Assembly (NCBI GenBank): GCA_963803275.1
Contig: CAWDLS010000001.1
Coordinates: 17,487 to 81,486, forward strand
Source: an uncultured Gammaproteobacteria bacterium
GTDB taxonomy: Bacteria; Pseudomonadota; Gammaproteobacteria; UBA9214
Direction of reading: 5' to 3'
Length of the DNA: 64,000 bases
A program made the position numbers and the translations under genes. Below, piece after piece: positions 4,133 to 36,379 of the stretch. The notes beneath the pieces were generated by a model. That model had not been told where the DNA came from. It was given only the letters and a program-made list of their open reading frames with translations, and did no database searches. How positions within the stretch are numbered: the stretch's first letter is position 1; every line of letters begins with the position of its first letter.

Positions 4133-4334
4133 AACTCCCCTCCTGAAGGTACATGGTAACCCGTATGCGGCGGATGATTCTTTATGAATAACGGAGATAC
4201 TAAGGAATGCCTACCCTGCACACAAGCCTTTTCACCCGCGACGCCCCGCGCGCCGTTGCGATCAGCCCCCTCGCATGGCCGGGATTTTTATGGATAATCA
4301 GATGCCTCGTCACGACAACCCGGCAACCGAACAC

Positions 4335-5160: not shown

Positions 5161-5256
5161 ACGAAGAAAAGGGGTCTGGAGTCAATTACGTGAACGCATC
5201 GGGAAGATTGGCCGGGATGGTTGCCGTAATCGACTCCGACCCCTGATCCTGGATTC

Positions 5257-7938
<2,682 letters not shown>

Positions 7939-8820: not shown

Positions 8821-8865
8821 GGGCTGGCTTCACGCGCTCGGGAGGCGGTCATGATACGCACGCGC

Positions 8866-9606: not shown

Positions 9607-9692
9607 AAGAAAATACCTCCATATAAGCGCGCAATACGTTGATTAACCTTGCATAATCATCCGACGATCCGGCATTCCTGCTGACCGTCCCG

Positions 9693-10661: not shown

Positions 10662-10741
10662 GCAATCATCGAGATTGGGTTATACTCTCGCGGCGCCGGT
10701 AGCGGCGCCCGCTCCCGGAACATTTTGACACATCACAAGCA

Positions 10742-11554
10742 ATGCGATTGACGAGTTTAATCCTGGCCGCCCTGCTGCTGGTTTCCGGCGGGTGCTCCCT
10801 GCTCCCCGACCAGGTCGACAAGACCAAGGACTGGTCCGCCAACCAGCTCTACAGTGCGGCCAAGGATGAGCTGACGCAAAAGAACTACGAACAGGCGATC
10901 AAGTACTTCGAAAGCCTCGAGTCCCGCTACCCGTTCGGCAAGTTTGCCCAGCAGGCACAGCTGGAGATCGCCTACGCCTATTACAAGTTTGATGAACCCG
11001 ACCTGGCACTGGCGGCGGCTGACCGCTTCATCAAGATCTATCCGCGTCACCAGAACGTGGATTATGCCTGGTACCTGAAAGGACTGGTCAACTACAGCCG
11101 CGGGAAGTCGGTGGTCGACCGGTTGCTGCCGCAGGACCCCACCGAGCGCGACACCGTCACCATGCGCACGGCCTATGATGACTTCAACCAGCTCTTGCAA
11201 CGCTACCCGGACAGCATCTACGCCAGGGACGCCGCCCAGCGCATGATTTACCTGCGTAACAGCATGGCGGAGTACGAACTGCATGTGGCCGACTATTACA
11301 TGCGGCGCAAGGCCTATGTCGCGGTCGTCAACCGCTGCAAGTACGTGATCGAGAATTTCCAGCGCACCCCGTCCGTGCCAAACGCACTGGTGTACATGGT
11401 ACGCGCCTACCGGATACTCGGCGCCGATGACATGGCCGCGGATGCACTGAAGGTACTGCGTCTCAACTACCCGCAAAGCCCCGACCTTGCCCTGCTGGAC
11501 GCACCCGGTGGCTACCCGGCCGATCAGTCACCCTCGATCTGGAAGTTCTGGTAG
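10742..11554 (+). CDS. bamD: Outer membrane assembly lipoprotein BamD
   Basis: Lipobox LVSGGC, YPFGKFAQQAQLEIAYAYYK, ADYYMRRKAYVAVVNR; divergent from rluD. Confidence 0.95.
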   Translation: MRLTSLILAALLLVSGGCSLLPDQVDKTKDWSANQLYSAAKDELTQKNYEQAIKYFESLESRYPFGKFAQQAQLEIAYAYYKFDEPDLALAAADRFIKIYPRHQNVDYAWYLKGLVNYSRGKSVVDRLLPQDPTERDTVTMRTAYDDFNQLLQRYPDSIYARDAAQRMIYLRNSMAEYELHVADYYMRRKAYVAVVNRCKYVIENFQRTPSVPNALVYMVRAYRILGADDMAADALKVLRLNYPQSPDLALLDAPGGYPADQSPSIWKFW

Positions 11555-15970: not shown

Positions 15971-16192
15971 ATGCGCACCCTGCTCATCTTCATCGCACTT
16001 GCCCTGATTTTCATGATCGGCAAGCGACTGGTGCAAAAGCCGCGCGCTGAAAAACGCACACAGCCCCTGTCGGGCAAGATGGTCCGGTGCGCGCACTGCG
16101 GAATCTACATACCTGAGAACGAGGCCTTCGAGCAGGCTGGTCACTCCTATTGCTCCAGGGAGCACCGCGACGCGGGGCATAAACAGACATGA
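15971..16192 (+). CDS. PP0621-family small membrane protein
   Basis: N-terminal TM, MVRCAHCGIYIP...YCSREH; directly upstream of pilS. Confidence 0.85.
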   Translation: MRTLLIFIALALIFMIGKRLVQKPRAEKRTQPLSGKMVRCAHCGIYIPENEAFEQAGHSYCSREHRDAGHKQT

Positions 16193-17864
16193 CCGTACCC
16201 ACCGGTGCTGTCGATCTGCAGGAAAACGTCGCCGGTGAGGGTAACGGGGCCGACAGGCGCGATGAGCCGGCATGGAAGCCACTGCGCCTGCTGACATTCT
16301 ACCGTCTGATACTCGCGGGACTGCTGACGGTCCTGTACTTCTCCATCAGCGGAGATACGTCGCTCGGCATGCTGGCGCCGGGAATGTACGGGCTTACCTG
16401 TATCGGTTACCTGCTGTTCAGCCTGCTTGCGGGTTTTGCCGCGCGCCTGCGCTGGCCCGGCTATGAATTGCAGGCCATCAGCCAGGTATTCATCGATATC
16501 GGCGTCATCACGGTCCTGATCCATGCCAGCGGCGGCCTGGCGAGCGGGCTCGGCATCCTGCTGATCATCTCGGTTGCCACCGGCAGCATCCTGTTGCCGG
16601 GGCGGATGGCTTTCATGTTCGCGGCGGTGGCTGCCCTGGCGGTGATGGGCGAGCACTTTTACAGTTCCCTGTTGCTGGACATGCCCAGAACCACCGGGTT
16701 CACACAGGTCGGGTTGCTGGGCACCGCGCTGTTCGCAAGCGCGGGGCTGACCTACCTGCTGGCGCGCAGGATCAAGGAGAGCGAGGCACTGGCACAACGG
16801 CGCGGCGTCGATATCGCCAACCTCGCCATGCTCAACGCCCGTATCGTGCAGCGGCTGCAGGCCGGCATCATTGTCACCGATCATCACCACAACATCCTCC
16901 TGATCAACGACACCGCGCGCAAGCTCCTCAATGCACCCGGCGCGCAGACGGAACAGCCGCTGGCGAGTCTGTCACCCGCACTGTTCAAAAAACTGCTGGA
17001 CTGGCAGCTTGCGCCGTCACGGCAGTCGACACTGCTGAAAAGTGAAGCGAATGCAACCAGCATACTGCCGCAGTTTACCCGCCTGGGTTCCTCGAACGGC
17101 CTGGGTGCGCTGATATTCCTGGAAGACATGGCGGCGATGGAGAAACAGGCCCAGCAGTTCAAGCTGGCCTCGCTGGGCCGCCTGACCGCCAGCATCGCCC
17201 ACGAGATCAGGAATCCGCTCGGGGCAATCAGTCACGCCGCGCAGTTGCTGAGCGAACAAAACGTACTGGGCGAGGAAGACCGCCGCCTGATGACCATCAT
17301 CGGTGACAACACATCCAGGGTTAATGTCATCGTCGAGAACATACTGCAGCTGTCACGGCCCAACTCGTCGATCCCGCGGATCCTGCGCCTCGCCGGATGG
17401 GTGGAGAATTTTACCGGGGAATTTTCACACAGCGGCATCTGCCTGCCGGCCCAGATCAGCTGCTCGGTTGCGCCCGCGGATATCGAGATCTACATGGATC
17501 CAAGCCTGCTGCACCAGGTCGTGTGGAACCTGTGCCAGAATGCAATCCATCACGGCCGCGCATCGGCGGCAACACGACTGCAGCTGATCGGCGGTCTGAC
17601 GGCTACCCCGGACGCGGCGCATCTTGATATCATCGACAACGGCCCCGGCATCGACCCTGACATGACTGACAAGATATTCGAGCCCTTCTTCACCACGCAC
17701 AGCAGCGGCACCGGACTCGGCCTGTACATCGCGCGCGAGATCTGTGAAAGCAATGGTGCCCACCTCGAATACCGCCCCGCTGCGCAAGGCGGCAGCTGTT
17801 TTCGCATCACCTTCCCGGTCGGCACCGGGATGCCCGCCGCCCTGCCGACGGCGCGACACGCGTC

Positions 17865-17868
<4 letters not shown>
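16189..17868 (+). CDS. pilS: Sensor histidine kinase PilS
   Basis: About 6 TM segments, PAS-like region, H-box IAHEIRNPLGAI, DNGPGI, FEPFFTT, GTGLGL; paired with pilR. Confidence 0.93.
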
Positions 17869-19220
<1,352 letters not shown>

Positions 19221-19432: not shown

Positions 19433-19459
19433 TGGCAAAAAACTGGCACGGAATGTGAA
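19433..19459 (+). promoter_or_regulatory. Sigma-54 (-24/-12) promoter of pilA
   Basis: Overlapping TGGCAAAAAACTGGCA (GG-N10-GC) and TGGCACGGAATGTGAA; AT-rich, IHF-like tract at 19360-19400. Confidence 0.65.
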
Positions 19460-20034: not shown

Positions 20035-20063
20035 AAAACGCCCCGGTCCCCGGGGCGTTTTTT
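20035..20063 (+). terminator. Intrinsic terminator after pilA
   Basis: AAAACGCCCCGG-tcc-CCGGGGCGTTTTTT. Confidence 0.88.
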
Positions 20064-20144
20064 ATTTTCAACACGGCCGCATCGACAGTACACTGACACC
20101 CATGACCGGATCACAGCCCATACTGCAGGTGTTTCCCTGTCTCC

Positions 20145-22142
20145 ATGCCAAACCTGCCCGTAGATAACGACCTTGTGAGCAGTGCAGGACACCTGAAAAA
20201 TCCCGCCGGATGGCTGTTTGTCCTGCTCTGCCTGCTGACAGTCATGGTCTACTTTCCCGGCCTGTCGGGCGACTACATGTTCGATGATCGCCCCAACCTG
20301 CTGGAGAACCCGCGGCTGGACATGGCCGCGCTGGACATGGACAGCCTGCTGGGCGCGGCCGTCTCCACGGGTTCCGGTACCTTGCGACGGCCGGTCAGCA
20401 TGGCGAGCTTTGCCCTGAACCGCTATTTCTTCGGCATCGCCCCCTGGTCATACAAGGTCATCAACCTGGGCATCCACCTGCTGACCGGCCTGTGCCTGTG
20501 GCTGCTGGGCGGCCTGATCATGCGCAGCTATGTGCGCCATCGTAATCCCGAGTTCCCCGCCGCAGCGGCGTACTGGCTGCCTGCACTGGCTGCCGGCCTG
20601 TGGCTGGTGCACCCGCTGAACCTCACCACCGTGTTGTACATCGTGCAACGCATGGCCAGCCTGTCGGCGCTGTTCAGCGTGGCCGGCCTGTGCCTATACC
20701 TGCTGGGGCGGCTGCGCATGCGCGCGGGCAGGCCGGGGCTGGTGTACATATTCACCGGGCTGCTGGTGTTTGGCACGCTGGCCGTGCTCAGCAAGGAAAA
20801 CGGCATCCTGCTGCCGGTATTCATGCTGGTGCTGGAGTTTTCCCTGTTCCGTTTCAGGGACAGCAACGGGCAGATCGATAAACGGATAGCCGGACTCTTT
20901 GTGCTGGTCGTTGCATTGCCCGCCGCGCTGACCGTGCTTGTCCTGCTGTTCGAGCCCGGCAAGCTGGTCAATTACAGCGACAAGTCCTACACCCCCGGGG
21001 AACACCTGCTGACCGAGGCAAGGGTGCTGATGTTCTACCTCAGGATGATCGTCATGCCCTCGATCAACGAACTGGGACTCTACCATGACGACATCCCGCT
21101 CTCGCAGGGGCTGCTGGACCCGCCCACGACACTGCTGTCGCTGCTGGCCATTGCCGGGCTGCTGGCCACGGCGCTGGCACTGCCTGCACGGCATGCGCTG
21201 GTGGGCCTGGGCATTCTCTGGTTCTTTGCCGGCCACCTGCTGGAATCAACCCTCATACCCCTGGAGATCGCCCACGAGCACCGCAATTACCTGGCCGATT
21301 ACGGGATACTGCTGGCGGCCTGCGCATTTGCCAGTCAGCTCAGGATGCAGCAGTACGCCGGTATCATCCGGATCGGCAGCGCTGCGCTGTTCATGCTGCT
21401 GTTCTCCTACACGACCTGGCTCAGGGCCGGGCAATGGTCGGACAATATACAACAAGCCATCTACGAGGCCACGCATCACCCCCGTTCGCCACGCGCCGTG
21501 TTTTCAGCCGGGCGGATCTACGCGCGCCTGACGTTGAATGGAATGGCAGACAGCGAGGCGGAGGCGTTCAGCTACCTGGAACAGGCTCGCCAGCTCGACA
21601 CGAGCAGCATCATGCCGGATGTCACCCTGGTCATGCTCAGCTATTACCTCGGCCGGCCGGTCGACCCCGCCAGCTTTGCCGAGATCAGGCGCAAGCTGAA
21701 AGTGAATCCGCTGTCGACCTCGGATATCAGCAGCCTGCAAAGGCTGGCCGAATGCTTCGGTGAGCGCTGCGATATCCCCGCCGACGTGATGGAGGAGTTT
21801 TTCAAGCTCGCACTCGGCAACAGCAAGACGCCGCAGCTGTTGACGCTTTACGGCTACTTCCGTATCAACAAGCTGGGTGATTTCACGACCGGACTCGGGA
21901 TATTCCGTGAGGTGGTCGACAGGTTTCCCGGCGAATCCCAGCACTGGGTCAACCTGATCAATCTGCTGATCGTCATGGAACGCTACGACGATGCGGAACG
22001 GCAACTGGAACGACTCAGAAACACCAGCAGCTACGGGGGCACCACCGCGCTCTTTGAAATGCTGGAACACGAAATCAATACGGCCCGCACGGTAAACACG
22101 GCCCAGACACGTCAGGAAGCACCGCACGAGATACTCCAATGA
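20145..22142 (+). CDS. TMTC-like GT-C membrane glycosyltransferase with C-terminal TPR-like domain
   Basis: About 11 TM segments; YMFDDRPNLLENP, RRPVSMASFALN, INLGIH, LWLVHPLN, YIVQR, LSKENGILLP, EHRNYL, then a helical TPR-like tail. Confidence 0.72.
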   Translation: MPNLPVDNDLVSSAGHLKNPAGWLFVLLCLLTVMVYFPGLSGDYMFDDRPNLLENPRLDMAALDMDSLLGAAVSTGSGTLRRPVSMASFALNRYFFGIAPWSYKVINLGIHLLTGLCLWLLGGLIMRSYVRHRNPEFPAAAAYWLPALAAGLWLVHPLNLTTVLYIVQRMASLSALFSVAGLCLYLLGRLRMRAGRPGLVYIFTGLLVFGTLAVLSKENGILLPVFMLVLEFSLFRFRDSNGQIDKRIAGLFVLVVALPAALTVLVLLFEPGKLVNYSDKSYTPGEHLLTEARVLMFYLRMIVMPSINELGLYHDDIPLSQGLLDPPTTLLSLLAIAGLLATALALPARHALVGLGILWFFAGHLLESTLIPLEIAHEHRNYLADYGILLAACAFASQLRMQQYAGIIRIGSAALFMLLFSYTTWLRAGQWSDNIQQAIYEATHHPRSPRAVFSAGRIYARLTLNGMADSEAEAFSYLEQARQLDTSSIMPDVTLVMLSYYLGRPVDPASFAEIRRKLKVNPLSTSDISSLQRLAECFGERCDIPADVMEEFFKLALGNSKTPQLLTLYGYFRINKLGDFTTGLGIFREVVDRFPGESQHWVNLINLLIVMERYDDAERQLERLRNTSSYGGTTALFEMLEHEINTARTVNTAQTRQEAPHEILQ

Positions 22143-23026
22143 GCATGGACACAAGCATCATCCTGCCCGCCAAGAACGAGGCCGACAGCCTGAGAACGCT
22201 GCTCCCGGCACTGAAGGAAAGGTTTCCGGCAGCCGAGATTATCGTCGTCGATGACGGTTCGACCGACGACACGGGCGATGTCTGCAGAAACAACGGCGTG
22301 CGCATGATCTCGCACGTCTATTCCATGGGCAACGGGGCAGCCATCAAGACGGGGGCACGCAATGCCGAGGGCAATATTCTGGTATTCATGGATGCCGACG
22401 GGCAGCATGACCCCGACGACATCCAGCCACTGATCGACGGTGTTAACCAGGGCTACGATATGATGGTCGGTGCGCGCCACCTCGACAGCCATGCGTCGCT
22501 GACTCGGCGTATCGGCAATACCGTCTACAACAGGCTTGCCTCGTGGATGACCGGCTACCCCATCCTGGACCTGACATCGGGTTTGCGTGCCGCGCGGGCG
22601 CGTCACTTCAAGAAGTTCCTGTACCTGCTTCCCAATCGGTTTTCCTACCCGACCACCAGCACCATGGCGTTTTTCAGGTCCGGACTACCGGTTGGTTATA
22701 TACCGATCCGGGCCAGGACACGCACCACTGAAACCAGAAGTCACATACGGCTGTTCCACGACGGCTTCCGTTTCCTGATCATCATCGTAAAGATCGGTGC
22801 ACTGTTCTCGCCGATGCGTTTCTTCCTGCCCATCAGCGGGGCACTGCTGGCATCCGGGCTGTGCTACTACGCCTACACCTATTTTTCCTGGGGTCGGCTG
22901 ACGAACATGAGCGCCGTCCTGTTCCTGTCCTCGCTGTTCACGTTCCTGATCGGCGTCGTTTCTGAACAGGTGTCGGCCCTGCATTACAAGGACATCGTGG
23001 AGACCCGCCGCCGCACGGAACGGTGA
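22139..23026 (+). CDS. GT2 glycosyltransferase, DPM1/GtrB-like (polyprenol-phosphate sugar synthase type)
   Basis: SIILPAKNE, VVDDGSTD, MDADGQHDP, DLTSGLRA, two C-terminal TM helices; ATGA overlap with the upstream gene. Confidence 0.85.
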   Translation: MSMDTSIILPAKNEADSLRTLLPALKERFPAAEIIVVDDGSTDDTGDVCRNNGVRMISHVYSMGNGAAIKTGARNAEGNILVFMDADGQHDPDDIQPLIDGVNQGYDMMVGARHLDSHASLTRRIGNTVYNRLASWMTGYPILDLTSGLRAARARHFKKFLYLLPNRFSYPTTSTMAFFRSGLPVGYIPIRARTRTTETRSHIRLFHDGFRFLIIIVKIGALFSPMRFFLPISGALLASGLCYYAYTYFSWGRLTNMSAVLFLSSLFTFLIGVVSEQVSALHYKDIVETRRRTER

Positions 23027-24226
23027 CTACCGCTGCACACGCGCCGTCGACGCAACGGTATCTATGATCTCGCCAAGCCGGTTGCTGAATTCCGCGATAC
23101 CCCATGCCGCCGACCTGGCAGCACCCCTGTCACGCAACCGCTGGCACAGCGCTTCATCAGACCACAGCGCCGCCATGACAGCAGACACCTCGTCCACCGA
23201 GCGCGGATCGAAATACAGCGCCGCATCGCCCAGCTGTTCGGGCATGCCGTAGATCCGTGACACCGCCACCGGACAGCCACAGGCCATTGCCTCGAGCGGC
23301 GGAATATTGGTCGGACCATAGAAGGTGGGCATCAGCAACGCACGGGCGCAGTGATACATGGTTGCCATGTCATCGTCGGGGATGTAACCGATAATCTGTA
23401 CCCTGTCGAGCAGACCGGCATCCCTGACCAGCCCTGCTACGATGTCATAGTTGTTCTTCTTTCCACCACAGAACACCAGCCGCATGTCGGGATGCCCGGC
23501 AAGGTTTCTTTGCAGCCCGCGCAGCAGCAGCTCGTGATTCTTGTGCTTCCAGAATTGTGCGGGATAGAAGAAAAATTTCTCCGGTAGCAGGTACCGCTCG
23601 CGCAGCGACCGCCTGTCTCCATCGGTGACGGGACGGTAGATATAGTCCGGAGGAATGAATGGCAGGGCGTGGATCCTGCTTCTGTCGCTATTGTATGACT
23701 CGGCCACATGATCGGCACCGGTAGACGAGTCGACCAGGACTCCTGCACACCACCTGGCCAGGTTACCGTAGTTGAACTCCCGGTAGCTGAATTCCGCAGG
23801 AGAAGCAGACTCCTCGAACTCCGGTTCGTACCTGTGCATGAGATCGTGTATGGCGCATATGGAAGTGACCGGGATCCAGTACGCCATGCTGTCCTGGGAA
23901 GGGAAGATCCAGACATCGCAGCCCTGCCGGATGAAGATCCTCGTCACCGGGTGCCAGAATGGTGCCAGCGCGCGCCACAGCGATACCGGCAGACGCAACC
24001 TGCCCCACAGTTCCGCGCTGGCCCTGCTGACCACCGCGCGGCCCAGCCGGACGTGAACAAGGTTGCAGCCATGCAGTCTTTTTTGCCAGTAGTCGCCGCT
24101 GCTGGCAACAAGAACCTGGTAGCGATCACGGGGCAGCAATCTGGCCGCCGCCAGCAGCCCCAGATTGTATTGCAGTGTGCCCCCCATCTCCTCCCGTGCA
24201 CGCAGGAAAATACCGACTCTCAGCAT
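23027..24226 (-). CDS. GT4 glycosyltransferase
   Basis: AIHDLMHR, FYPAQFWKHKNH, GPTNIPPLEAMACGCPV; likely start MLRVGIF at 24226. Confidence 0.88.
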   Translation of the reverse strand: MLRVGIFLRAREEMGGTLQYNLGLLAAARLLPRDRYQVLVASSGDYWQKRLHGCNLVHVRLGRAVVSRASAELWGRLRLPVSLWRALAPFWHPVTRIFIRQGCDVWIFPSQDSMAYWIPVTSICAIHDLMHRYEPEFEESASPAEFSYREFNYGNLARWCAGVLVDSSTGADHVAESYNSDRSRIHALPFIPPDYIYRPVTDGDRRSLRERYLLPEKFFFYPAQFWKHKNHELLLRGLQRNLAGHPDMRLVFCGGKKNNYDIVAGLVRDAGLLDRVQIIGYIPDDDMATMYHCARALLMPTFYGPTNIPPLEAMACGCPVAVSRIYGMPEQLGDAALYFDPRSVDEVSAVMAALWSDEALCQRLRDRGAARSAAWGIAEFSNRLGEIIDTVASTARVQR

Positions 24227-24990
24227 TTGCGGGCGACGTGGCAGACGTTCCAGGTGCCGGTTCCGGGCCTGTTTCCGCTCAGCCATTCCTCGGTGGTCTC
24301 CAGGGAGAGTCCGCACTGCTGCAGGAAATAATCGACTTCAGGCGAAAACAGGTAGCGCATCCTGTGCAATTCATGAAACCGTTCCCGTGCACCCGATGCC
24401 TTTTCGCGCACCGTCACGTTGAAATGCACATCGACAATGTCACTGTCAGGCCAGAGTTCAGGTGTTGTTTCCCTGACGATCTCAAGCGCCTCGTTCTCGG
24501 CGGACTTCATCCTGTGTTCCGGTTGCTCGGTCAGCACCGCCGGACCGTACCAGCAATCGAAGATGAAGAGACCGCCGGTCTCAAGGTGGGCTGCGGCATT
24601 ACGGAATGTCGAGATGATGTCGCCATTGGTGGTCTGGTAGCAGACGACATGAAACAGCGCCATGACCACATCGAAGCTACGGTCTGCCCGGTAGTCGCGG
24701 ATATCGCCCTGGTTGAAGGACACTGCAGCGGCCGTGCCGGCGTCACTGTCATGCTGTCTTTCCCGCGCGATGTGTACCATGTCTGCACTCAAATCGACGC
24801 AGTGCAGGGAATATCCTTTTTGCGCAAGCAGCAGGGCATGCCTTCCCGTGCCGGACCCGAGCTCCAGGATGTGGCGCGAACCGGGTCCGTACCGGTGCAC
24901 CAGACTGTCAATATATTCCGCTTCCGCAGTGTAATCCTTGTCCCTGTACAGCAGGTCGTAGTAGCCGGCGTATTTCCTGAAATTGCTCAT
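24220..24990 (-). CDS. Class I SAM methyltransferase, resembling amino-sugar N-methyltransferases
   Basis: YAGYYDLLYRDKDYTAEAEY, LELGSGTGRH, GDIRDY, GGLFIFD. Confidence 0.82.
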   Translation of the reverse strand: MSNFRKYAGYYDLLYRDKDYTAEAEYIDSLVHRYGPGSRHILELGSGTGRHALLLAQKGYSLHCVDLSADMVHIARERQHDSDAGTAAAVSFNQGDIRDYRADRSFDVVMALFHVVCYQTTNGDIISTFRNAAAHLETGGLFIFDCWYGPAVLTEQPEHRMKSAENEALEIVRETTPELWPDSDIVDVHFNVTVREKASGARERFHELHRMRYLFSPEVDYFLQQCGLSLETTEEWLSGNRPGTGTWNVCHVARKC

Positions 24991-26105
24991 GCAAACAGTT
25001 TCACCACGGTATCCGCCACCCGGTCGACCTGCTCGTCGGTCATGGCCAGTCCGCTCGGTATGTAGAATCCACGCACGGCGATGCGCTCCGCAACCGGACA
25101 GCTGATGCCGTCGAACAGCCCCATCTTCCTGAACACCGGCTGCCGGTGCATCGGGTAGAAAAACGGCCGGGTCCCGATGCCGACCCTGCCCAGTTCCTGC
25201 ATCGCATCCCGTGCCGTCATCGCCAGGCCGTCATCGAGAACCAGCCCGTAGACCCAGTACATGTTATCCGCATAGCCCGTGCTCGCGCGGGGCAGGGTCA
25301 GGACATCAATACCGCCCAGCCGTTCATTGTAGCGATGGCCGATCTCGATCTTCCTGGCCAGGTGTGCATCCAGCCGGTGCAGTTGCCCCACGCCGAGCGC
25401 AGCCTGCAGGTTGGTCATGCGCATGTTCCAGCCCATCTCCTCGTGCACGAACCTGGCTTCGGGCATGAAACAGAGGTTGCGCAGACCGCGGCAGCGCTCG
25501 GCCAGCGCCGGCGAATCCGTCACGATCATGCCGCCTTCACCGGTTGTCACCAGCTTGTTGGGATAGAAACTGAACACGCTGATATCGCCGAAGCTGCCGC
25601 ATGGCCGGCACCGGCAGGTCTGGCCGATCGCCTCCGCGGCATCCTCGATGACCAGCAAACCGTGCCTGCGTGCCAGTTCCATGAGCGCATCCATATCGAC
25701 AGACAGTCCGTAGATATGCACCGCCATGATGGCGCGGGTACGGGGTGTGATCAGTGCCTCGATAGCGGCAACATCCATGTTCCAGGTATCGGGGTCAGCA
25801 TCGACCACCACGGGGATGGCCCCTGCCCTGACAATTGCCGTTGCACAGGAGATGATGGTAAACGCCGGCATAATGATCTCATCACCCGCCCCGAGACCGA
25901 GCGCCACGACAGCGGCCTCGAGGGCCATGGAGCCATTGGCGACGGCGATACCGTATTGCCTGCCGACCCGTTTGGAAAATTCGGTCTCGAACTGCCCGAC
26001 ATACGGCCCTTCCGACGATATCCAGCCAGTCTCCAGGCAATCGGCGATGTAGTCCTTCTCTTCCTGACCAATCAGTGGCTCGTTGACCGGGATGAAGTCA
26101 TTCAT
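24987..26105 (-). CDS. DegT/DnrJ/EryC1/StrS sugar aminotransferase (perosamine synthase-like)
   Basis: GWISSEGPYV, IEDAAEA, FSFYPNKLVTTGEGG (PLP lysine), GIGTRPFF. Confidence 0.92.
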   Translation of the reverse strand: MNDFIPVNEPLIGQEEKDYIADCLETGWISSEGPYVGQFETEFSKRVGRQYGIAVANGSMALEAAVVALGLGAGDEIIMPAFTIISCATAIVRAGAIPVVVDADPDTWNMDVAAIEALITPRTRAIMAVHIYGLSVDMDALMELARRHGLLVIEDAAEAIGQTCRCRPCGSFGDISVFSFYPNKLVTTGEGGMIVTDSPALAERCRGLRNLCFMPEARFVHEEMGWNMRMTNLQAALGVGQLHRLDAHLARKIEIGHRYNERLGGIDVLTLPRASTGYADNMYWVYGLVLDDGLAMTARDAMQELGRVGIGTRPFFYPMHRQPVFRKMGLFDGISCPVAERIAVRGFYIPSGLAMTDEQVDRVADTVVKLFA

Positions 26106-26548
26106 AACGGATTCTTGATAGTGATGCCTTCCTGCGCGACGGGATCGAAGCGGGTCTTGTCCCTGTCATCCGTATAGGGGCCCTGTTTCACCTCGACCAT
26201 CCTCAGATCCTCGATGACCTCGAACCCGTGCCCGCCCGATACCAGCAGTATCACATCTCCCGCGCCGAGCAGGCGACTCTCGAGATACACCCTGTTGTCG
26301 TCGTAAAAATCCACGCGCAACCTGCCGCTCTTGATGAACAGTGCTTCCTGCGTGTAGAACACCTCCCTTGGTACCGGGTTGTGAACGTGTGCATCGATGA
26401 CCTTGCCCTTGTGGTGGGTCATGTGGGCAACCTGCTGCGAAAGCTCGCTGGGCGTGAAGAAGTTGACCCCGGGCGCGTTATACGAGTCATAAATGATGAC
26501 GGCCAGCAACTTGCCGTTACATAATATTTTCTCGAATCCCTCACTCAT
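26102..26548 (-). CDS. Cupin-fold protein (sugar isomerase-like)
   Basis: AHVHN...TQEALF...GGHGFEV...EVKQGPY cupin motifs. Confidence 0.78.
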   Translation of the reverse strand: MSEGFEKILCNGKLLAVIIYDSYNAPGVNFFTPSELSQQVAHMTHHKGKVIDAHVHNPVPREVFYTQEALFIKSGRLRVDFYDDNRVYLESRLLGAGDVILLVSGGHGFEVIEDLRMVEVKQGPYTDDRDKTRFDPVAQEGITIKNPL

Positions 26549-27512
26549 GATGTCATCCTCGAATACAGCCTGCGTACGATTAACTCGATCCTCGATGCGG
26601 CAAGCAGCCGCGTCAACTGGTCTGCAATGAATACTAATATCAATGAGATGGCATTACCATGAGCGCTCTCCTCGAAGTAGCCGAACATCATTGCATGCCT
26701 GCACACATAGCGCTGTATCAGCCGGTCTTCGCCGGACCAAGCTTGCGACGCCACTTGTAGAGTGACTCCCTGCGGACACCCGGGGCAAGATTGCCTTTCT
26801 GCCAGGGGCAACTGGTGCCGGAAACGATTCCGGCTGCCGAGTGATGGAAGGACTCGAGCATCCCCTCTTCGAAGGCAATGTCGAGAAATTCACAGATTGC
26901 GGCCACCGTTTCCCGGGATTGCTCCACAAGTGCTTCATAGTGCAGGTGCAAGACCTGCTCCTGGCGCGGGAATTCCAGAACCGCCCCGACACACGTGTCC
27001 CAGAGGTTCGCAAAATCATGCAGTGAGCTGATGTACCTGATCCGGAAATCATCAGGCGCGATTGGCCTGATAGCTGACATGGAGCCGACACACGCCACCG
27101 GGTCCCTGATCACGTTGATTATCCTGGCCTGCGGATAAAAACGTGTGATTGCCGGCAGATGCCTGGCATGCAGCGTGGTCTTCTCTACCCAGCGTGGTTT
27201 GTTGTCGTTGTTGAACGTGCCGAGCAGGCTTTCGAACAAAGACCTGATATCCATTTCAGTATTTTGTTCAAGGAAGGCGGCCGGTAGCTCGATTCCGGTC
27301 ATTTCCAGGAGATCCGCGGCAACCGTCTCCAGGCAGTGCCTGTCGATCCTGGCGCCGGGATCGCTGTACTCGATGCCGAGGCGGGGAATGATCCTGGAGA
27401 AAAAGGATGTCTCGGGCGCACTGAATATCTCACTGTGCGAGGCAAGCATACTCTGCAACAGCGTGGTACCGCTGCGTGGACAACCGACGATGAATATACC
27501 GCTGTTTTTCAT
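26545..27512 (-). CDS. PAPS-dependent sulfotransferase (frameshift near 26722)
   Basis: IFIVGCPRSGTTLL, WVEKT, RDPVACVGSM, HYEALV; the C-terminus continues in another frame to an ATGA overlap with the cupin. Confidence 0.88.
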
Positions 27513-28882
27513 GCGTCAGGAAAAGCGACCCTGAAGTTCATGAACGTGTTAATCCCGGTGCGTTTCCTTGCGAAATACATCATCAGGAAGTTCTGGACTA
27601 TCATCGCGCCGGAGAACACCGCGGCAACACCCAAAATTCCTACGTGAATAGCGGCATATATCGAGGTAACTATAGCAAGCGCACTGGTTATGACACTGAT
27701 TACCATCATTGTGCGCTGATAACCGGTCATGAGCAGCACCATTCCGCAGGGACCGGAAATCACGTTGAACAGCTGGCCCGCACCCAGCACGACGAGAACC
27801 AGGTAACCATTGCTGTAGAATGGGCCGTACAGCAGCTCCAGCAGGGGTTCACCGGCAAGGTAAAAGACCACCAGGACCAGCGCCGAAGGGATGGCTGCCA
27901 GCGTGGTGCCGGTTCTCAGCGTCCGCTCCAGCCGGGCATGCTCCTGCCTGGAATACAGATCGGCGATGAAGGGGGAGACGACGGAATTCAGGATCATCAG
28001 GGAGATCGAGATCGCCAGTATGAGGCGCGTGGCCGCGCCGTACACCGCCACGTCGTCAACAGTCAGGAAACTGCCGATAATCCAGATATCCGCCTGTGTC
28101 AGCAGCAGCAGGGTGATATTGGTCGACCACATCGGCCAGGCAACCGAGATAAGTCCGGACAGATCCATGCGACCGTTCCCGTGCGATGGCAACATTTTAT
28201 TCCTGAGGCGAACAGCGCCCAGCACGGTACTCAGCGCAATCGACCCCGCCAGCAGACCCAGCACCGTTTCGATGCGGCTGGTCCCGGCCAGGCCCCAGAG
28301 AATGAACATGAAGGCAACCGACAGGAGACCGGGCAGCGTCACACCGTAGAGCGTCGCTGCACGCACGTCGTGATAACCACGCAGGCACTCGGCAGTGATG
28401 CCGAGCATCGTCTGTGAAGAGAACCACAGAGCCAGCACCAGCAGCACGTACCTGTCCAGTGACAGGCTGGCGAATATCTCCGGCGGTCTGATAAAAGCAT
28501 AGAACACGCCCAGGCAGGACAGAATCACAACCGCCTTGCCGACGAGCTGCAATGCCAGCATGGCTACGGATGCCGCCTGCTCGCGTCTGTTGTTGCTGAG
28601 CGACTCGGCAATCAGGCGCACCACCGCGATATTCATGCCAAGCTGGGAAACCAGCGACAGGATCGAAACCAGGCTGAAGCAGAGAAAGTAGAAACCCACC
28701 TCGGCGGCGTTCAGCAGGCGCGTGATGAACGCAATCACCAGCAAACCCGACAGCATCGATACAACCCGGCCGGTCAATACCCAGACCACGTCGACAATCA
28801 GCTTGTTACCGGCTAAGTGGCATAATCGGCCGATTGTATACATCACCATGCCGACAAACCAATAGCGGGTGATGTATGACAC
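27509..28882 (-). CDS. Wzx-type oligosaccharide flippase (start uncertain)
   Basis: About 12-14 TM segments; RLLNAAEVGFY, TQADIWIIG, VAVYGAATRL, LLMTGYQR. Confidence 0.87.
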   Translation of the reverse strand: MSYITRYWFVGMVMYTIGRLCHLAGNKLIVDVVWVLTGRVVSMLSGLLVIAFITRLLNAAEVGFYFLCFSLVSILSLVSQLGMNIAVVRLIAESLSNNRREQAASVAMLALQLVGKAVVILSCLGVFYAFIRPPEIFASLSLDRYVLLVLALWFSSQTMLGITAECLRGYHDVRAATLYGVTLPGLLSVAFMFILWGLAGTSRIETVLGLLAGSIALSTVLGAVRLRNKMLPSHGNGRMDLSGLISVAWPMWSTNITLLLLTQADIWIIGSFLTVDDVAVYGAATRLILAISISLMILNSVVSPFIADLYSRQEHARLERTLRTGTTLAAIPSALVLVVFYLAGEPLLELLYGPFYSNGYLVLVVLGAGQLFNVISGPCGMVLLMTGYQRTMMVISVITSALAIVTSIYAAIHVGILGVAAVFSGAMIVQNFLMMYFARKRTGINTFMNFRVAFPDA

Positions 28883-28987
28883 ATGCCTATCGAGTCAGCC
28901 GGCCGGCAGCCGGACTTGCCGGCATGCATTTGGCAACCGGCGCACTTGTGGACATCATACTGTTGTTTCGGTAAAAGTATCGACGCA

Positions 28988-30121
28988 ATGCGCATACTGG
29001 CCATCTCCAAGCGACAGTACATGAGCAAGGACCTGCTCGATGACCGGTATGGCCGTTTCCGGGAAATCCCGCTCGCGCTGGCGCGCCGCGGACACGAGGT
29101 CCGTGGTCTGTGCATCAGCTACCGGCCACGCATGAATATGCAGGCTGTCGATACGGACCTCCGCTCCGGCGCATCGGTCAGCTGGGATTCGGTCAACCTC
29201 GGCAAACTGCTGGCACCGGGCCTGGTCCGGTTCCTGCGAAAAGGCCGGCAACTCGTGCGTGACTTCAGGCCAGACATCATCTGGGCCGGTTCGGACAGCT
29301 TCTATGGTCCTATCGCCCTCTACCTCGGCAAACATTCTGGCAGCCGGGTGGTGTTCGACATCTACGACCACTTCGAGACCTTCGCCTCGACAAAAATCCC
29401 CGGCCTGTTTGCCTTGTATCGCCGGGCATGCCGGGATGCGGACGGCGTCACCAGTTTCAGCGAGGTCATGAGTCGGCATATCGTACAGCAGTATGGACGC
29501 CATGGTCCGTTGCTGACCCTCGTGAATGGCACCGACAGGGATGTATTCCGCCCGCTCGACAAATTCCGCTGTCGCGGCAGATTTGACCTGCCGGAAAGCG
29601 GCCAGCTGCTGGGCATCGCCGGCGCGATCTCGCAGCACCGTGGCATCAAGACCGTGTTCCGCGCGTTTGAAACGCTGGCCGGGACCGATCCCGATATCCA
29701 CCTGGTCATCGCCGGCCCGCGCGACCGGGATCTCGCCATTCCGGCTCATGCCCGCCTGCACGACCTCGGTATGCTGGATCATGCGGATGTCCCCTGCATG
29801 CTGAATGCGCTTGATATCGGCATTGTCCCGCAGCGCGACAGCCCGGCCGGGCGCTTCGGATTCCCCTACAAGGCCTACGAAATGATGGCCTGCGGCCTGC
29901 CCCTGGTCGCGGCCAGGGTCGGCGTCATGAGCGGCCTGCTCGATGACTGTCCCGGGTGTCTGTACGAGCCGGACAACAGCACAGACCTCTGCCGTGCCAT
30001 ACGCTGCCAGCTGGACGCACCCCGTACCACGACAAAGGTTGTCCCCGACTGGGACGATATAGCCGGGGTGTTTGAAGGATTTTTACTGGATCTGGCCAAC
30101 CCGGACTCCCGAACAGGATGA
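28988..30121 (+). CDS. GT4 glycosyltransferase
   Basis: MRILAIS, VVFDIYD, VNGTDRDVF, FPYKAYEMMACGLPLVA. Confidence 0.87.
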   Translation: MRILAISKRQYMSKDLLDDRYGRFREIPLALARRGHEVRGLCISYRPRMNMQAVDTDLRSGASVSWDSVNLGKLLAPGLVRFLRKGRQLVRDFRPDIIWAGSDSFYGPIALYLGKHSGSRVVFDIYDHFETFASTKIPGLFALYRRACRDADGVTSFSEVMSRHIVQQYGRHGPLLTLVNGTDRDVFRPLDKFRCRGRFDLPESGQLLGIAGAISQHRGIKTVFRAFETLAGTDPDIHLVIAGPRDRDLAIPAHARLHDLGMLDHADVPCMLNALDIGIVPQRDSPAGRFGFPYKAYEMMACGLPLVAARVGVMSGLLDDCPGCLYEPDNSTDLCRAIRCQLDAPRTTTKVVPDWDDIAGVFEGFLLDLANPDSRTG

Positions 30122-31005
30122 GCCGGCAGCTTTTTATCATCATTCCGGTGCTCAACCGCTGGGAGCAAACACGCCACTGCCTGAAGCGGCTGATGGCCGG
30201 CAGCGACACCGGTTTCAGCGTGATCGTCGTCGATCACGGCTCGACCGATGACACATGCGACGGTCTGCGCGATGAATTTCCCGGCGTCCTGCGCATTGCC
30301 GGCAACACCGACATGTGGTGGACCGCCGCCACCAACCTGGGCATACGCGAGGCCCTGCAGCGCGGCGCCACCGATATCATGCTCCTCAACAACGACTGCT
30401 ACCTCGAGCGTGACACCATCGCCTGCCTGAAACGGCACCAGGCCAGTGCCGGCGAGGCCGTGATCGCGCCGCTCCAGCGCAGCCTGCAGACCGGCAGGAT
30501 ACTCACCCGCCGCATGACAACCTGCTTTCTGCTGGGATTCCCCACCCTGGTGCTGCCGGGCAGGGACATGTACCGGCCGGAGGAACACTGCCTGCTGCCC
30601 ACGCCCCTGATCATCGGCGGCCGCGGTGTCCTGATACCCGCCGGTGTGTTCGAAAAGACCGGGCTGCTGAACGAAGTGGACCTGCCCCATTACGGGGCCG
30701 ACCACGACTTTTTCCTGCGCTGCAGAAAACGTGGCATACCGCTGTTCATCACTAGCGACGCCGTCGTGGATATCGATGCCACGACAACAACGCTCGCCAC
30801 ACGAACCGGGCAGATGCCGTTCGGGCGGTTCCTGTCAACACTCAGGGAGCGCCGCTCGCACCGTAATCTGCCGGAGCTTGCCGCGCTGTTCAGGTTGCAC
30901 TACCCGATTCCGGGGCTCTACCCGCTCGGTGTGGCACTGAACCTCGTGCGCTACACACTGGTGTATGCGGCTGCCCGGCTCATTCATGCTGGTGGACTGA
31001 AGTGA
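30118..31005 (+). CDS. GT2 glycosyltransferase (rhamnosyltransferase-like subgroup)
   Basis: IIIPVLNR, VVDHGSTD, WWTAATNLG, LLNNDC, HYGADHDF. Confidence 0.87.
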   Translation: MSRQLFIIIPVLNRWEQTRHCLKRLMAGSDTGFSVIVVDHGSTDDTCDGLRDEFPGVLRIAGNTDMWWTAATNLGIREALQRGATDIMLLNNDCYLERDTIACLKRHQASAGEAVIAPLQRSLQTGRILTRRMTTCFLLGFPTLVLPGRDMYRPEEHCLLPTPLIIGGRGVLIPAGVFEKTGLLNEVDLPHYGADHDFFLRCRKRGIPLFITSDAVVDIDATTTTLATRTGQMPFGRFLSTLRERRSHRNLPELAALFRLHYPIPGLYPLGVALNLVRYTLVYAAARLIHAGGLK

Positions 31006-31196
31006 GCATCCGGCGTGCATTGCCGGTAAACTTCGCGCAGGATCCTGCCTACGGCATTCGGCCCGCCGCTTCCGGGATTGATCGGCTTGCGGAGGCATCT
31101 TACCATCCCCGCGTGACACTTCCGGCAGGGCATTCCCGGGAATTTGCCCTGATGCACAGACCAGCTCACCCGTTGCAGGGAGATCGACACCCTTGA
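31002..31196 (+). CDS. Possible 64-aa hypothetical protein
   Basis: GTGA overlap with the upstream GT2 stop and TTGA overlap with the downstream methyltransferase start; no recognisable motif. Confidence 0.3.
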   Translation: MSIRRALPVNFAQDPAYGIRPAASGIDRLAEASYHPRVTLPAGHSREFALMHRPAHPLQGDRHP

Positions 31197-31942
31197 GCAG
31201 AGGATATCAATATGGTTTCTCGGCAGGCAGTCCCTACGTATACGATACAGAGAACCGGGAGAGAAAGGCGCGCACCATGACCGCAGTCCTGGAGGACTTC
31301 CTCCCTGCACCGCTTGACAGCTATGACTTGCTGAACGTGGGTGGTTCTGCCGGCATCATCGACAATTATCTTGCGCAACACTTCCGCAGCGTCACCGGTA
31401 TCGACATCGACAAACCCGCCATAGAGCATGCACAGCAGAATTTCACACGCGACAATCTGGAGTTCAGGGTCGCCGATGCGCTCAGTCTCCCGTTCGGTGA
31501 CGAGTCCTTCGACGTCGTGATCTGTTCGCATGTCTACGAGCATGTCCCGGACCCGGAACGTATGTTCGACGAGATATTCCGTGTGCTGCGCAAGGGTGGA
31601 ATCTGCTATTTCTCGGCAGGCAACCGGCTGATGTGGAACGAGCCCCACTACAACCTGCCGTTGCTGTCAGTACTGCCACGGCCGCTGGCGCATGTCTATA
31701 TCAGGCTCGCCGGCAAGGCGCGCTTCTATCACGAAAAACACCTGAGCTACTGGGGTCTGAAGTCACTGGTGCGCAGGTTCACCGTGAATGACTACACAAA
31801 ACGGCTCGTCGTGGAGCCGAAACGGTTTCACACCGAGTACATGATAAGGCCCGGTAGCGCCAGGGCGAGGATCGCGGGCGCACTGCTCGGGCTCGCATAC
31901 TGGGCCTTCCCCGGCTATATCTGGTTACTGCAAAAGCAGTAG
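31193..31942 (+). CDS. Class I SAM methyltransferase
   Basis: LLNVGGSAG, GIDID, ADALSLPFGDESFDVVICSHVYEHVPD, RVLRKGG. Confidence 0.88.
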   Translation: MSRGYQYGFSAGSPYVYDTENRERKARTMTAVLEDFLPAPLDSYDLLNVGGSAGIIDNYLAQHFRSVTGIDIDKPAIEHAQQNFTRDNLEFRVADALSLPFGDESFDVVICSHVYEHVPDPERMFDEIFRVLRKGGICYFSAGNRLMWNEPHYNLPLLSVLPRPLAHVYIRLAGKARFYHEKHLSYWGLKSLVRRFTVNDYTKRLVVEPKRFHTEYMIRPGSARARIAGALLGLAYWAFPGYIWLLQKQ

Positions 31943-31973
31943 TCACCCCGCAGGGGGCGACAACCCGCAACAG

Positions 31974-33067
31974 ATGAACCTGCTCTTCATTTCAAGATCC
32001 TTCCCCCCGTTACCGGGGGTATCGAAAAACAGAATGCAGAAATTGCCCGGGCACTGACATGCATCTGCAACGTCCGGCTCATCGCAAATCGCAGGGGGAA
32101 ATACCTGCTGCCGCTGTTCCTCCCCTATGCAACGCTGAAGGCACTGCTGATCCTGCGGCGGCAGGACGCCATCTTGCTAGGCGACGGCGTGCTGGGAATC
32201 ACCGGTTTCATCCTCAAGCTGTTCACCAGCAAACCCGTGGTCTGCATCACCCACGGTCTCGACCTGACCTATTCGAGTCGCATCTACCAGCGGCTCTGGG
32301 TACGGATATTCCTGCCGCACATGGACAGGTTGATTGCAGTCGGGAATGCGACGCTGGCACAGGGCGTTCGGCGTGGCATACCGGCGGCACGCTTCGTATT
32401 CATTCCAAACGGTGTCACCGCCCCGGCCCCGCCACGGCGCGACTATTCCAGGGCAGATCTGGCGGCCTTTATCGGTAAAACACCGGGCCGTACGGTACTC
32501 CTGACCCTCGGAAGACTGGTACGGAGAAAGGGAGTAACATGGTTCCTCGAGAATGTCGTTCCATGCCTGGACAACGACATTACCTATATCATCGCCGGCG
32601 CGGGACCCGAACACGCGCGCATCACCGCCGCAATCAGCACTCGAGGGCTGGAAGACCGCGTTGTCCTGGTCGGCAGGGTAACAGAAGCGGAAAAGGAACT
32701 GCTGTTCCATACCGCCGATATCTTCGTCCAGCCCAATATACCGGTCAGCGGTGATATCGAGGGTTTCGGCCTGGTCGTCCTGGAAGCGGCTGCACACGGC
32801 ATGGTGGTGATCGCCTCGGACCTGGAGGGTCTCGGTGATGCGATCAGCGACGGGGCAAACGGCTACCTCGTCAGTCCCGGGAATAGCCGGGCATACTGCA
32901 CCCGGATCGCGGTACTGACGGCTGACCGAGACGGCATGAAGACGTTCGGACAACATGCCAGGGACCACACCATCAGCCACAATGCCTGGTCGCTGATTGC
33001 GCAACGTTACCTCGAGGTCATCAACCAGGCAGGCGACTCGCAAGGCAACTCGGCGAAAACGGGCTAG
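31974..33067 (+). CDS. GT4 glycosyltransferase (one-base frameshift in the C6 run at 32003-32008)
   Basis: MNLLFISRSFPP then, in a shifted frame, VTGGIEKQN; THGLD, IPNGV, LGRLVRRKG, EGFGLVVLEAAAHG. Confidence 0.87.
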
Positions 33068-35093: not shown

Positions 35094-35098
35094 GCATC

Positions 35099-36332: not shown

Positions 36333-36379
36333 TCGCAGCAAACACTGCAACGCAGCTGCCGGACAGGCTGCCTTAGCCC

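Follow-up and report, generated by a model that had tools for sequence, protein, structure and literature searches.

A predicted TPR-bearing GT-C glycosyltransferase and a polyprenyl-phosphate sugar synthase adjoining pilA: a probable pilin O-glycosylation module in an uncultured gammaproteobacterium

Genes of the pilA locus

Here, we describe a pair of genes that lies directly behind pilA, the gene of the major type IVa prepilin, in a 64,000-nucleotide stretch of DNA from an uncultured soil gammaproteobacterium of the UBA9214 lineage (GenBank assembly GCA_963803275.1, contig CAWDLS010000001.1, positions 17,487 to 81,486 of the forward strand); this whole stretch is called the window below. 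The first gene of the pair encodes a protein of 665 amino acids (aa) with a predicted GT-C glycosyltransferase domain and a tail of tetratricopeptide repeats (TPR), and the second encodes a 295-aa glycosyltransferase of the GT2 family. The genes in the window follow each other in the order sucD/sucC (minus strand), pilS, pilR, pilA, a hairpin, the 665-aa open reading frame (ORF) and the 295-aa ORF, after which come a block of sugar-metabolism genes on both strands and then pilB, pilC and pilD. The features of the pair and of the pilin gene before it are the following:

19560/19575-20009, plus strand: pilA, major type IVa prepilin (Pfam Pilin 1.1e-21, N_methyl 1.4e-10)
20035-20071, plus strand: terminator-like hairpin (20035-20061) and T-run between pilA and the GT-C gene
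20145-22142, plus strand: GT-C/TPR gene, 665 aa (ORF; 11 membrane helices and a TPR tail)
20145-21440, plus strand: predicted GT-C membrane domain, residues 1-432 (domain model, structural matches)
21441-22142, plus strand: predicted periplasmic TPR domain, residues ~433-657, plus the stop codon (TPR_19, model)
22139-23026, plus strand: GT2 of the polyprenyl-phosphate sugar synthase type (GtrB/ArnC/DPM1/AglJ), 295 aa (PF00535 8.1e-28)

The source genome of the window is 90% complete, which sets the scope of all genome-wide negative results given below, and pilA is its sole PF00114 match. The likely start of pilA is the ATG at 19575; the prepilins of relatives begin with MK(L/Q). The hairpin behind pilA has 12 pairs, 8 of them G-C, and a loop of 3, and is followed by TTATTTTCAA, the whole distance from the pilA stop to the start of the GT-C gene being 135 nucleotides (nt). 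For accessory genes of other pilins, PMC11841053 reports a terminator behind pilA that acts by attenuation.

The GT-C/TPR protein and its GT2 partner

Only the tail of the 665-aa protein was recognised by curated family models. TPR_19 matches residues 578-626 (E 7e-05) and helical repeats appear at 449-657 in the model, which bears out the TPR-like tail read by the first-pass annotation of this DNA, and no Pfam or NCBIfam model matched the membrane domain of the window protein. When a profile of 35 relatives was compared with PDB sequences, it matched TPR proteins only, consensus TPR proteins among them. TPR proteins also dominated the Foldseek output for the full-length AlphaFold model (predicted local distance difference test score, pLDDT, 76.3); VIA-align of that model gave, on residues 9-438, Pmt4 (Z 17.0) and Pmt1/2 (16.6), then ALG12, AglB and ArnT.

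The membrane domain was also modelled alone (residues 1-445, AlphaFold2, a more diverse alignment of 62 rows), and this domain model reached a pLDDT of 93.8 and a predicted template modelling score of 0.93. Its VIA-align matches were AglB 3waj (Z 18.4; 312 residues, root-mean-square deviation 4.1), Pmt1/2 6p2r (17.2), Pmt4 9e61 (16.9), ArnT 5f15 (16.2), ALG12 (15.9), STT3 (15.3) and PglB (14.9). All 20 entries between Z 9.4 and Z 18.4 are GT-C-fold proteins, and the next row stands at Z 5.0. Foldseek listed the same GT-C families for the domain model, none of them at E<=0.001, and the ESM Atlas pointed to bacterial clusters with PMT_2/GT39 names, which we treated as a lead only. By its predicted structure, the membrane domain belongs to the GT-C glycosyltransferase superfamily (fold A). 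The first-pass annotation had named this fold as a point to be checked, and the domain model matches GT-C enzymes only.

There are 11 membrane helices in the domain model. Its cytoplasmic loops contain 12 lysines plus arginines and 5 aspartates plus glutamates, and its periplasmic loops 11 and 20, respectively. When 23 conserved polar residues were checked against this topology, 20 were found to sit in periplasmic loops, including D47, D48, R82, K217, E218, H314-D316 and E378-Y382; N107, H111 and R169 were placed within helices 2 and 4. The acidic motif that GT-C enzymes carry in the first extracytoplasmic loop is represented by D47-D48, in the outside loop after helix 1. A 665-aa polytopic protein after the pilA terminator, with a series of motifs in a given order, had been described from the letters alone, and the ORF at 20145-22142 carries all of these motifs in that order: F46-D47-D48, R82-P83, N107..I110-H111, H156-P157, R169, K217-E218 and E378-H379-R380-N381-Y382-L383.

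None of these residues varies among 35 relatives with 52-80% identity to the window protein. In 51 representatives at 31-53% identity, the invariant positions are D47, R82, N107, H111, P157, Q168, R169 and K217 as well as P305, D315, E378, H379, R380 and Y382. After a relative of only 19% identity was added (62 sequences), D47, N107, H111, P157, R169, K217, P305 and Y382 still did not vary. The conservation of the motifs is thus beyond chance. A predicted complex of the GT-C protein with the prepilin scored 0.00 in two runs made without controls, and counts neither way.

The stop codon TGA of the GT-C gene overlaps the start codon of the GT2 gene as ATGA and, judging from this overlap, the two genes are translationally coupled. 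Among the NCBIfam models, AglJ gives the GT2 its best match over the full length (1.3e-33, residues 5-284 of 295), and the next ones are PpgS, a dolichyl-phosphate-hexose transferase, ArnC and PgfS (6.4e-16). None of the NCBIfam matches reaches its curated cut-off, the best one, AglJ, scoring 116.7 against 325 bits; a score above such a cut-off would name the sugar. The seven best PDB sequence matches are to ArnC (8.4e-13), DPMS (1e-12) and GtrB (2e-10). All of the enzymes matched in NCBIfam and the PDB load a sugar onto a polyprenyl phosphate, and two hydrophobic stretches can be read from the sequence at the C-terminus of the GT2. These likenesses place the GT2 with the polyprenyl-phosphate sugar synthases, and the earlier claim of a coupled synthase of this type stands.

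Linkage to pilin, rates of change and the adjoining island

We assessed the spread of the GT-C family by sequence searches. In a word-indexed search, 1,454 of 8,000 scored candidates matched the family, and an exhaustive search found 25,681 representatives at E<=0.001, the weak end of which may include proteins matched through TPR alone; at E<=1e-30 there were 5,336 representative clusters. Gene neighbourhoods were examined in related loci, one genome per species, where 303 stretches had a relative and the best 80 of 303 were used. We counted a pilin as upstream if its ORF shared the strand of the GT-C gene and ended less than 600 nt before it. Only loci whose upstream sequence was no shorter than 700 nt entered this count (69), and the GT2 was counted in loci with at least 900 nt of downstream sequence (66).

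Under these rules, a pilin ORF stands just upstream of the GT-C gene in 64 of the 69 related loci. A GT2 orthologue (55-90% identical) follows directly in 56 of 66 and is present anywhere in the locus in 63 of 66, and both neighbours occur together in 55 of 61. The longer order pilS-pilR-pilA-GT-C-GT2 also recurs in many related loci. Four of the five loci counted without an adjoining pilin still have a pilin gene nearby: in L060 a Pfam Pilin ORF is present which the search pattern did not catch, in L016 the pilin lies ~2 kb upstream, behind an inserted GT-C gene of the PMT_2 type (4120-5802), in L033 pilins lie ~1.5 kb upstream behind a transposase, and in L047 the pilin is 1 kb upstream of a match that starts late.

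In a sample of 400 genomes drawn evenly from the class (one of them, G217, was not scored), 140 of 400 match the family at E<=1e-5, or 137 of 397 without the unpublished genomes G037, G115 and G260. A further set of counts comes from 60 genomes taken going down the match list, which is not a random sample; matches near contig ends or with internal stops, unpublished genomes and, without a fixed rule, some others were skipped. Here, a pilin is found upstream of the GT-C gene in 50 of 59 genomes, the GT2 adjoins the GT-C gene in 40 of 59 and lies no more than 3.5 kb away in 49 of 59, and pilin and GT2 were both counted in 42 of 58. A tight linkage to pilin genes, another point that had been singled out for checking, is thus seen in both the related loci and the sampled genomes. 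In a distant branch, represented by genome G369 (E 9e-27 to the profile), the order is pilS-pilR-GT2-GT-C/TPR-PF03706 membrane protein-pilA-pilB-pilC. The association with pilin has therefore arisen or persisted under a different gene order, there with a candidate third component.

Some variation of the module was seen along the way. Tandem GT-C/TPR paralogues followed by one GT2 occur in 8 of the 80 loci (L040, L041, L042, L046, L052, L057, L070 and L073), and several sampled genomes have two or three GT-C copies. L068 has an insertion between the genes of the module (8411-11287), which encodes a TPR protein of 959 aa that bears an OGT-like domain of the GT41 family. Pseudogenised family members with several stops and frame changes are present at G041:C1:1406546-1407898 and G148:C6:171948-173685. 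Two genomes, G182 and G323, belong to the same genus as the window genome; one has the module, with a GT-C protein 59% identical (L110), and the other has no match. The GT-C gene is gained, lost or replaced on short time scales.

Rates of change were compared in 33 loci that share all four genes, as identity to the window proteins. The medians are:

PilR: 76%
GT2: 76%
PilA: 66%
GT-C: 52%

Compared locus by locus, the GT-C protein shows a lower identity than the GT2 and than PilR in all 33 loci, and a lower one than PilA in 32 of 33. Within it, the TPR domain has a median identity of 32% versus 47% for the membrane domain, and is the lower of the two in all 74 loci. A GT-C protein that evolves fastest, with its TPR domain the most variable part, fits an enzyme that determines the specificity of a diversifying surface structure.

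The stretch from the GT2 gene to pilB is taken up by a variable glycan island of ~10 kb (23027-33067, both strands; Pfam and NCBIfam assignments) with these genes:

23027-24316, minus strand: GT4
24220-24990, minus strand: methyltransferase
24987-26105, minus strand: DegT-type sugar aminotransferase
26102-26548, minus strand: WbuC-like cupin
26718-27512, minus strand: sulfotransferase
27509-28882, minus strand: Wzx-like MOP flippase
28883-30121, plus strand: GT4
30118-31005, plus strand: further GT2
31193-31942, plus strand: methyltransferase
32174-33067, plus strand: GT4, TTG start, 297 aa

The G+C content is 0.55-0.60 in the island (23000-29000) versus 0.62-0.66 in the upstream pil and suc genes, and the content of the island is almost wholly different between related loci; the island behaves as a replaceable cassette. 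The first-pass annotation spoke of a two-gene module. The pair is indeed present, and "two-gene" probably understates the system, as the pair heads this 10-kb island before pilB. The genome scan found neither a priming phosphoglycosyltransferase nor a Wzy_C gene in the island. The single Bac_transf gene and the three Wzy_C genes of the genome (the latter on C2 and C10) are on contigs other than that of the window; within the window there is one Glycos_transf_4 gene, at ~56.4-56.9 kb, outside the island.

Islands of related loci were examined where at least 4 kb follow the GT2 (41 loci), by their first three ORFs (123 ORFs, E<=1e-12). A further GT4 or GT2 was found in 22 of these loci and a Wzx-like gene in 9; most of the remaining ones have sugar-nucleotide, aminotransferase, sulfotransferase or methyltransferase genes, and nothing alike was found in L022, L034, L049 and L074. 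No Bac_transf or Glycos_transf_4 match was found among the 123 ORFs at E<=1e-12, nor among 65 of the remaining 67 ORFs within ~5 kb at E<=1e-15 (two small ORFs were left out of this second downstream scan), 188 ORFs in total. A conserved pair heading islands that have no primer of their own is compatible with an undecaprenyl-phosphate monosaccharide beside an unrelated cluster, or with an oligosaccharide primed by the GT2. From its position and from the similar islands of related loci, we infer that the island is linked to the pilin module.

The last GT4 of the island (32174-33067, in the region 31943-33067) looks truncated at its N-terminus, because its Glyco_transf_4 match begins at profile position 87. 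Contigs from three sequencing runs have one extra C after position 32002, which suggests a one-base deletion in the window upstream of this ORF. In some related loci, a membrane protein of PF03706 (LPG_synthase_TM) stands beside the GT2 and GT-C genes (L103 at 10055-11047, L015, L033, L054, L063 and L077), and is a candidate flippase where there is no Wzx or GtrA gene; none was found in the stretch of the window that was scanned for it.

The pilus genes around the pair are:

16189-17868, plus strand: pilS, sensor kinase (Pfam 6TM_PilS 1.1e-36, HisKA, HATPase_c)
17865-19220, plus strand: pilR, sigma-54 activator (Sigma54_activat 2.3e-69, Response_reg, HTH_8)
33377-35095, plus strand: pilB, pilus assembly (tblastn, 51% identity to PilB of locus L103; frame broken)
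35109-36335, plus strand: pilC, pilus assembly (tblastn, 33% identity to PilC of L103; frame broken)
36380-37243, plus strand: pilD, pilus assembly (tblastn, 59% identity to PilD of L103; frame intact)

At several places in pilB and pilC (33377-36335), in-frame stops occur together with short garbled stretches, after which the frame is resumed. In contigs of a related strain from soil metagenomes (runs X1 and X2), single bases of the window are missing at no fewer than nine places between 35850 and 36164, within pilC. Since these contigs are without the single bases, the frame breaks may be assembly errors; taken together, they may be assembly indels or strain-specific decay. Beside pilR, the gene of a sigma-54 activator, a TGGCAC hexamer at 19444-19449 stands ~125 nt upstream of the pilA start and is possibly the -24 element of a sigma-54 promoter, for which the downstream -12 element is poor.

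Proposed function, alternatives and known systems

We consider it probable that the pair is a module for O-glycosylation of pilin with a lipid-phosphate sugar donor, of the same kind as TfpW, the pilin D-arabinofuranosyltransferase of Pseudomonas aeruginosa group IV (Pa5196/PA7), to which it stands closest among known systems. The GT2 (22139-23026), on the cytoplasmic side of the inner membrane, would transfer a sugar from a nucleotide sugar to undecaprenyl phosphate, and the lipid-linked sugar would then be flipped to the periplasm, for which the Wzx-like protein of the island or the GT-C protein itself, as proposed for TfpW, are candidates. The GT-C protein would act on PilA while this is anchored in the membrane, ahead of its assembly into the pilus, and place the sugar on Ser/Thr hydroxyls, with an active site that periplasmic loops would form (D47/D48, R82, K217/E218, H314-D316 and E378-R380-Y382), and the periplasmic TPR domain would select the acceptor. 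Most likely, the adjoining island supplies or elaborates the sugar. The benefit would probably be variation of the pilus surface against pilus-specific phages; 10.1101/150227 and PMC11841053 state that pilin glycosylation protects P. aeruginosa from pilus phages. The proposed joint action of a synthase and a GT-C enzyme on pilin is well supported by the predicted fold, the conserved residues and the gene linkage.

Several observations weigh against this interpretation. The choice of pilin as acceptor is drawn from gene order and analogy, and the assignment of the GT-C protein to its family comes from predicted structure, as curated models of Pfam and NCBIfam give no match to the membrane domain. 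No GtrA-type flippase gene (PF04138) was found in the 90% complete genome, in a scan whose control gave matches in 8 genomes. Some relatives are placed away from pilin: the one in locus L066 sits in a sox gene context, the one in genome G243 is not linked to pilin, and 9 of the 59 sampled genomes have no pilin upstream of the GT-C gene. Moreover, with pilB and pilC broken in the assembly, the strain may make no pilus, or the breaks may be indel errors.

It is also conceivable, though unlikely, that the glycan is an oligosaccharide. This variant is nested in the interpretation given above and is not an exclusive alternative to it. Here, the GT2 would prime undecaprenyl monophosphate in the way of the archaeal AglJ, the GT4 and GT2 enzymes of the island would extend the chain and decorate it with amino, methyl and sulfate groups, and the Wzx-like protein would flip it, after which the GT-C/TPR protein would move it en bloc to pilin as an O-oligosaccharyltransferase of the GT-C type. 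AglJ as the best full-length family match of the GT2 speaks for this, but that match lies far under its cut-off. The island, with four transferases and a Wzx-like flippase and without a priming phosphoglycosyltransferase or a Wzy_C transferase, is also of the expected make-up, and the extra transferases, the Wzx-like genes and the missing primers of related loci agree with it; however, many O-antigen clusters have no priming enzyme because it is encoded elsewhere, the window genome does have such enzymes outside the island, and the island may serve another glycan altogether. Similarly, the oligosaccharyltransferase AglB is the top structural match, but it is only 1.2 Z units ahead of PMT. To our knowledge, there is no bacterial precedent for oligosaccharide donors linked to a monophosphate, which counts against en-bloc transfer. 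TfpM-type enzymes form a bacterial O-oligosaccharyltransferase class; in the unlikely event that the oligosaccharide variant is right, the GT-C/TPR family would be a third such class beside PglL/TfpO and the TfpM type, parallel to haloarchaeal N-glycosylation and ending in an O-linkage.

Rather less likely still is that the GT-C/TPR protein acts on another periplasmic acceptor, such as lipopolysaccharide or O-antigen (like GtrC and ArnT), a polysaccharide, or numerous envelope proteins (like Pmt and PgtC2), its place beside pilA then reflecting no more than a site where glycan islands tend to insert. The acceptor does not follow from the fold, ArnT is one of the near structural neighbours, the island resembles a polysaccharide cluster, and the family members away from pilin would fit as well. 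Yet the GT-C gene keeps its position right behind pilA in loci whose islands otherwise differ in their entire content, and the pairing recurs in the distant branch with its different gene order. The TPR domain, which varies most, as pilin does, is a protein-binding module in TMTC and TfpW according to PMC7801869 and 10.1101/2020.04.19.049825.

A catalytically inert pilus accessory or scaffold, or a locus decaying in this strain, is very improbable: the broken pilB and pilC frames and the pseudogenised relatives in G041 and G148 would suit it, but both the GT-C gene and the GT2 gene have unbroken frames, and residues of the catalytic type do not vary within the family. Contigs from soil metagenomes that cover the GT-C gene show 2 differences over 969 bases, and by the related-strain contigs the frame breaks may be assembly errors.

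Pilin glycosylation is known from a few pathogens, where it alters phage sensitivity and antigenicity. The GT-C family described here is very common, and most of the members that we looked at stand directly after a pilin gene and are paired with a lipid-sugar synthase. If glycosylation of pilin by the pair is the true function, glycosylated type IV pili would be the norm in many proteobacteria of the environment, the hypervariable islands that follow the pair would hold a large and as yet unexplored stock of pilin glycans, and the enzymes would be candidates for glyco-engineering with lipid-monophosphate donors. Should the transfer be en bloc, the class sample would place it in a large share of Gamma- and Betaproteobacteria.

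The first-pass annotation had taken the pair for an uncharacterised kind of bacterial module. This does not hold, since TfpW, Ppm1/Pmt, GtrB/PgtC2 and PgfS/PgfM1 have already been characterised, and to speak of a new kind of system in eukaryotic style goes too far. In full-text searches, with subscription journals and supplements outside their coverage, we found no paper on a GT2-fed, TPR-bearing GT-C enzyme that acts on pilin.

Among the systems that modify pilin, TfpO/PglL/PilO enzymes are sometimes encoded right after pilA too, and protect against pilus phages, but they belong to the Wzy_C family, with an unrelated fold and donors linked to undecaprenyl diphosphate. The 665-aa protein has no Wzy_C (PF04932) match, so an O-oligosaccharyltransferase of the Wzy_C type was rejected for it, and the distinction from PglL/TfpO drawn at the outset is confirmed, also by the position of the three Wzy_C genes of the genome on other contigs. 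Three-component Gtr systems, in which PMC11127046 describes a synthase (GtrB), a flip (GtrA) and a periplasmic GT-C enzyme (GtrC type), follow the same logic as the window pair; their acceptors are polysaccharides, and GtrA is the component not found in the window genome. Some related loci carry the PF03706 membrane protein instead of GtrA.

In streptococci, the pairs GtrB/PgtC2 and PgfS/PgfM1 have been shown biochemically, according to PMC11092751, to be undecaprenyl-phosphate sugar synthases with GT-C enzymes that act on Ser/Thr-rich regions of envelope proteins. The likeness extends to the GT2, which has PgfS among its NCBIfam matches, whereas the streptococcal GT-C enzymes are of the YfhO type without TPR, work in Gram-positive hosts and modify disordered Ser/Thr tracts of many proteins, not pilin. 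The same arrangement of a GT2 lipid-sugar synthase feeding a GT-C enzyme (GT39) is found in actinobacterial Ppm1/Pmt, which O-glycosylates secreted proteins according to PMC5882110. Unlike the window protein, Pmt has no TPR tail; it acts on many proteins and has no link to pilin. The yeast PMTs are among the best structural matches of the window protein (Z 17.2 and 16.9), and the Pfam models PMT and PMT_2 do not match it, with 1 of 51 relatives matching PMT at 0.002. The loop between its helices 7 and 8 has 58 residues, too short for a lumenal MIR domain of the PMT type.

TMTC1-4, the animal O-mannosyltransferases of cadherins in the endoplasmic reticulum, which we take to be CAZy family GT105, share with the window protein 11 helices and, after them, a lumenal or periplasmic TPR domain. 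The motifs printed in PMC7801869 are M1 DD (loop 1), M2 SHKSYRP...LCVLTSFRLN, M3 RxD, M4 KE(T/Q)xxT, M5 DW and M7 ERxxY, of which M1, M2, M4 and M7 are assigned there to catalysis and to metal and phosphate binding. Compared by eye with this printed list, the window protein reads:

M1, DD: DD
M2, RP-x5-SFxLN in TMTC1: RP-x4-SFxLN
M3, RxD: QR, without the Asp
M4, KE(T/Q)xxT: KE, in loop 3
M5, DW: HDD
M7, ERxxY: EHRNY, in loop 5

Judged against this list, counterparts of M1, M2, M4 and M7 lie in the same loops and in the same order as in TMTC. DUF1736 (PF08409), which in TMTC covers the loop between transmembrane helices 7 and 8, has no match at E<=0.1 in the window protein and does not appear in a list of 25 families for 51 relatives, at most 1 of which could match; the hosts are bacteria and the carrier would be undecaprenyl phosphate. 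Of the earlier label "TMTC-like", the architecture and the four motif counterparts can be kept, but with DUF1736 undetected and with AglB, PMT and ArnT as the nearest solved folds, we file the protein as a bacterial GT-C enzyme of the PMT/TMTC/TfpW architectural type and not as a member of the TMTC family.

The closest likeness is to TfpW. The preprint 10.1101/2020.04.19.049825 describes TfpW as a GT-C enzyme, encoded right after pilA, that glycosylates pilin; it is predicted to have 11 helices, with DDx in periplasmic loop 1, and ends in a TPR domain, its D-arabinofuranose comes from a polyprenyl-phosphate donor made by DprE1/DprE2-type enzymes, and its homologues adjoin pilA in several species. 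The place after pilA, the DD of loop 1, the ~11 helices and the periplasmic TPR domain are, by this description, common to TfpW and to the window protein. They would also suit a true TfpW orthologue that transfers alpha-1,5-D-arabinofuranose from polyprenyl-phosphate arabinose to pilin, and so would Y298-x6-P305, which is conserved and resembles the first half of the loop-4 motif YX6PFX7P of TfpW. However, in the window protein S306 and H314 stand in place of the F and the second P of that motif, and the conserved partner is a GT2 that depends on a nucleotide sugar. In the 90% complete genome, neither an ALO-domain (DprE1-type) gene, in a scan whose control found one in Corynebacterium, nor a GtrA-like gene was found, and for want of this donor pathway such an orthologue was rejected; we hold it to be most improbable. 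The loci differ in other respects as well, as the window has no TfpX-like gene and its pair stands in front of a variable island that encodes a Wzx-like flippase and additional transferases. What is new relative to TfpW would thus be the donor route, through a GT2 where TfpW is served by a D-arabinofuranose pathway through phosphoribosyl pyrophosphate, DprE1 and DprE2, and it is the donor that it would use, together with the frequency of the pair, that makes the system notable.

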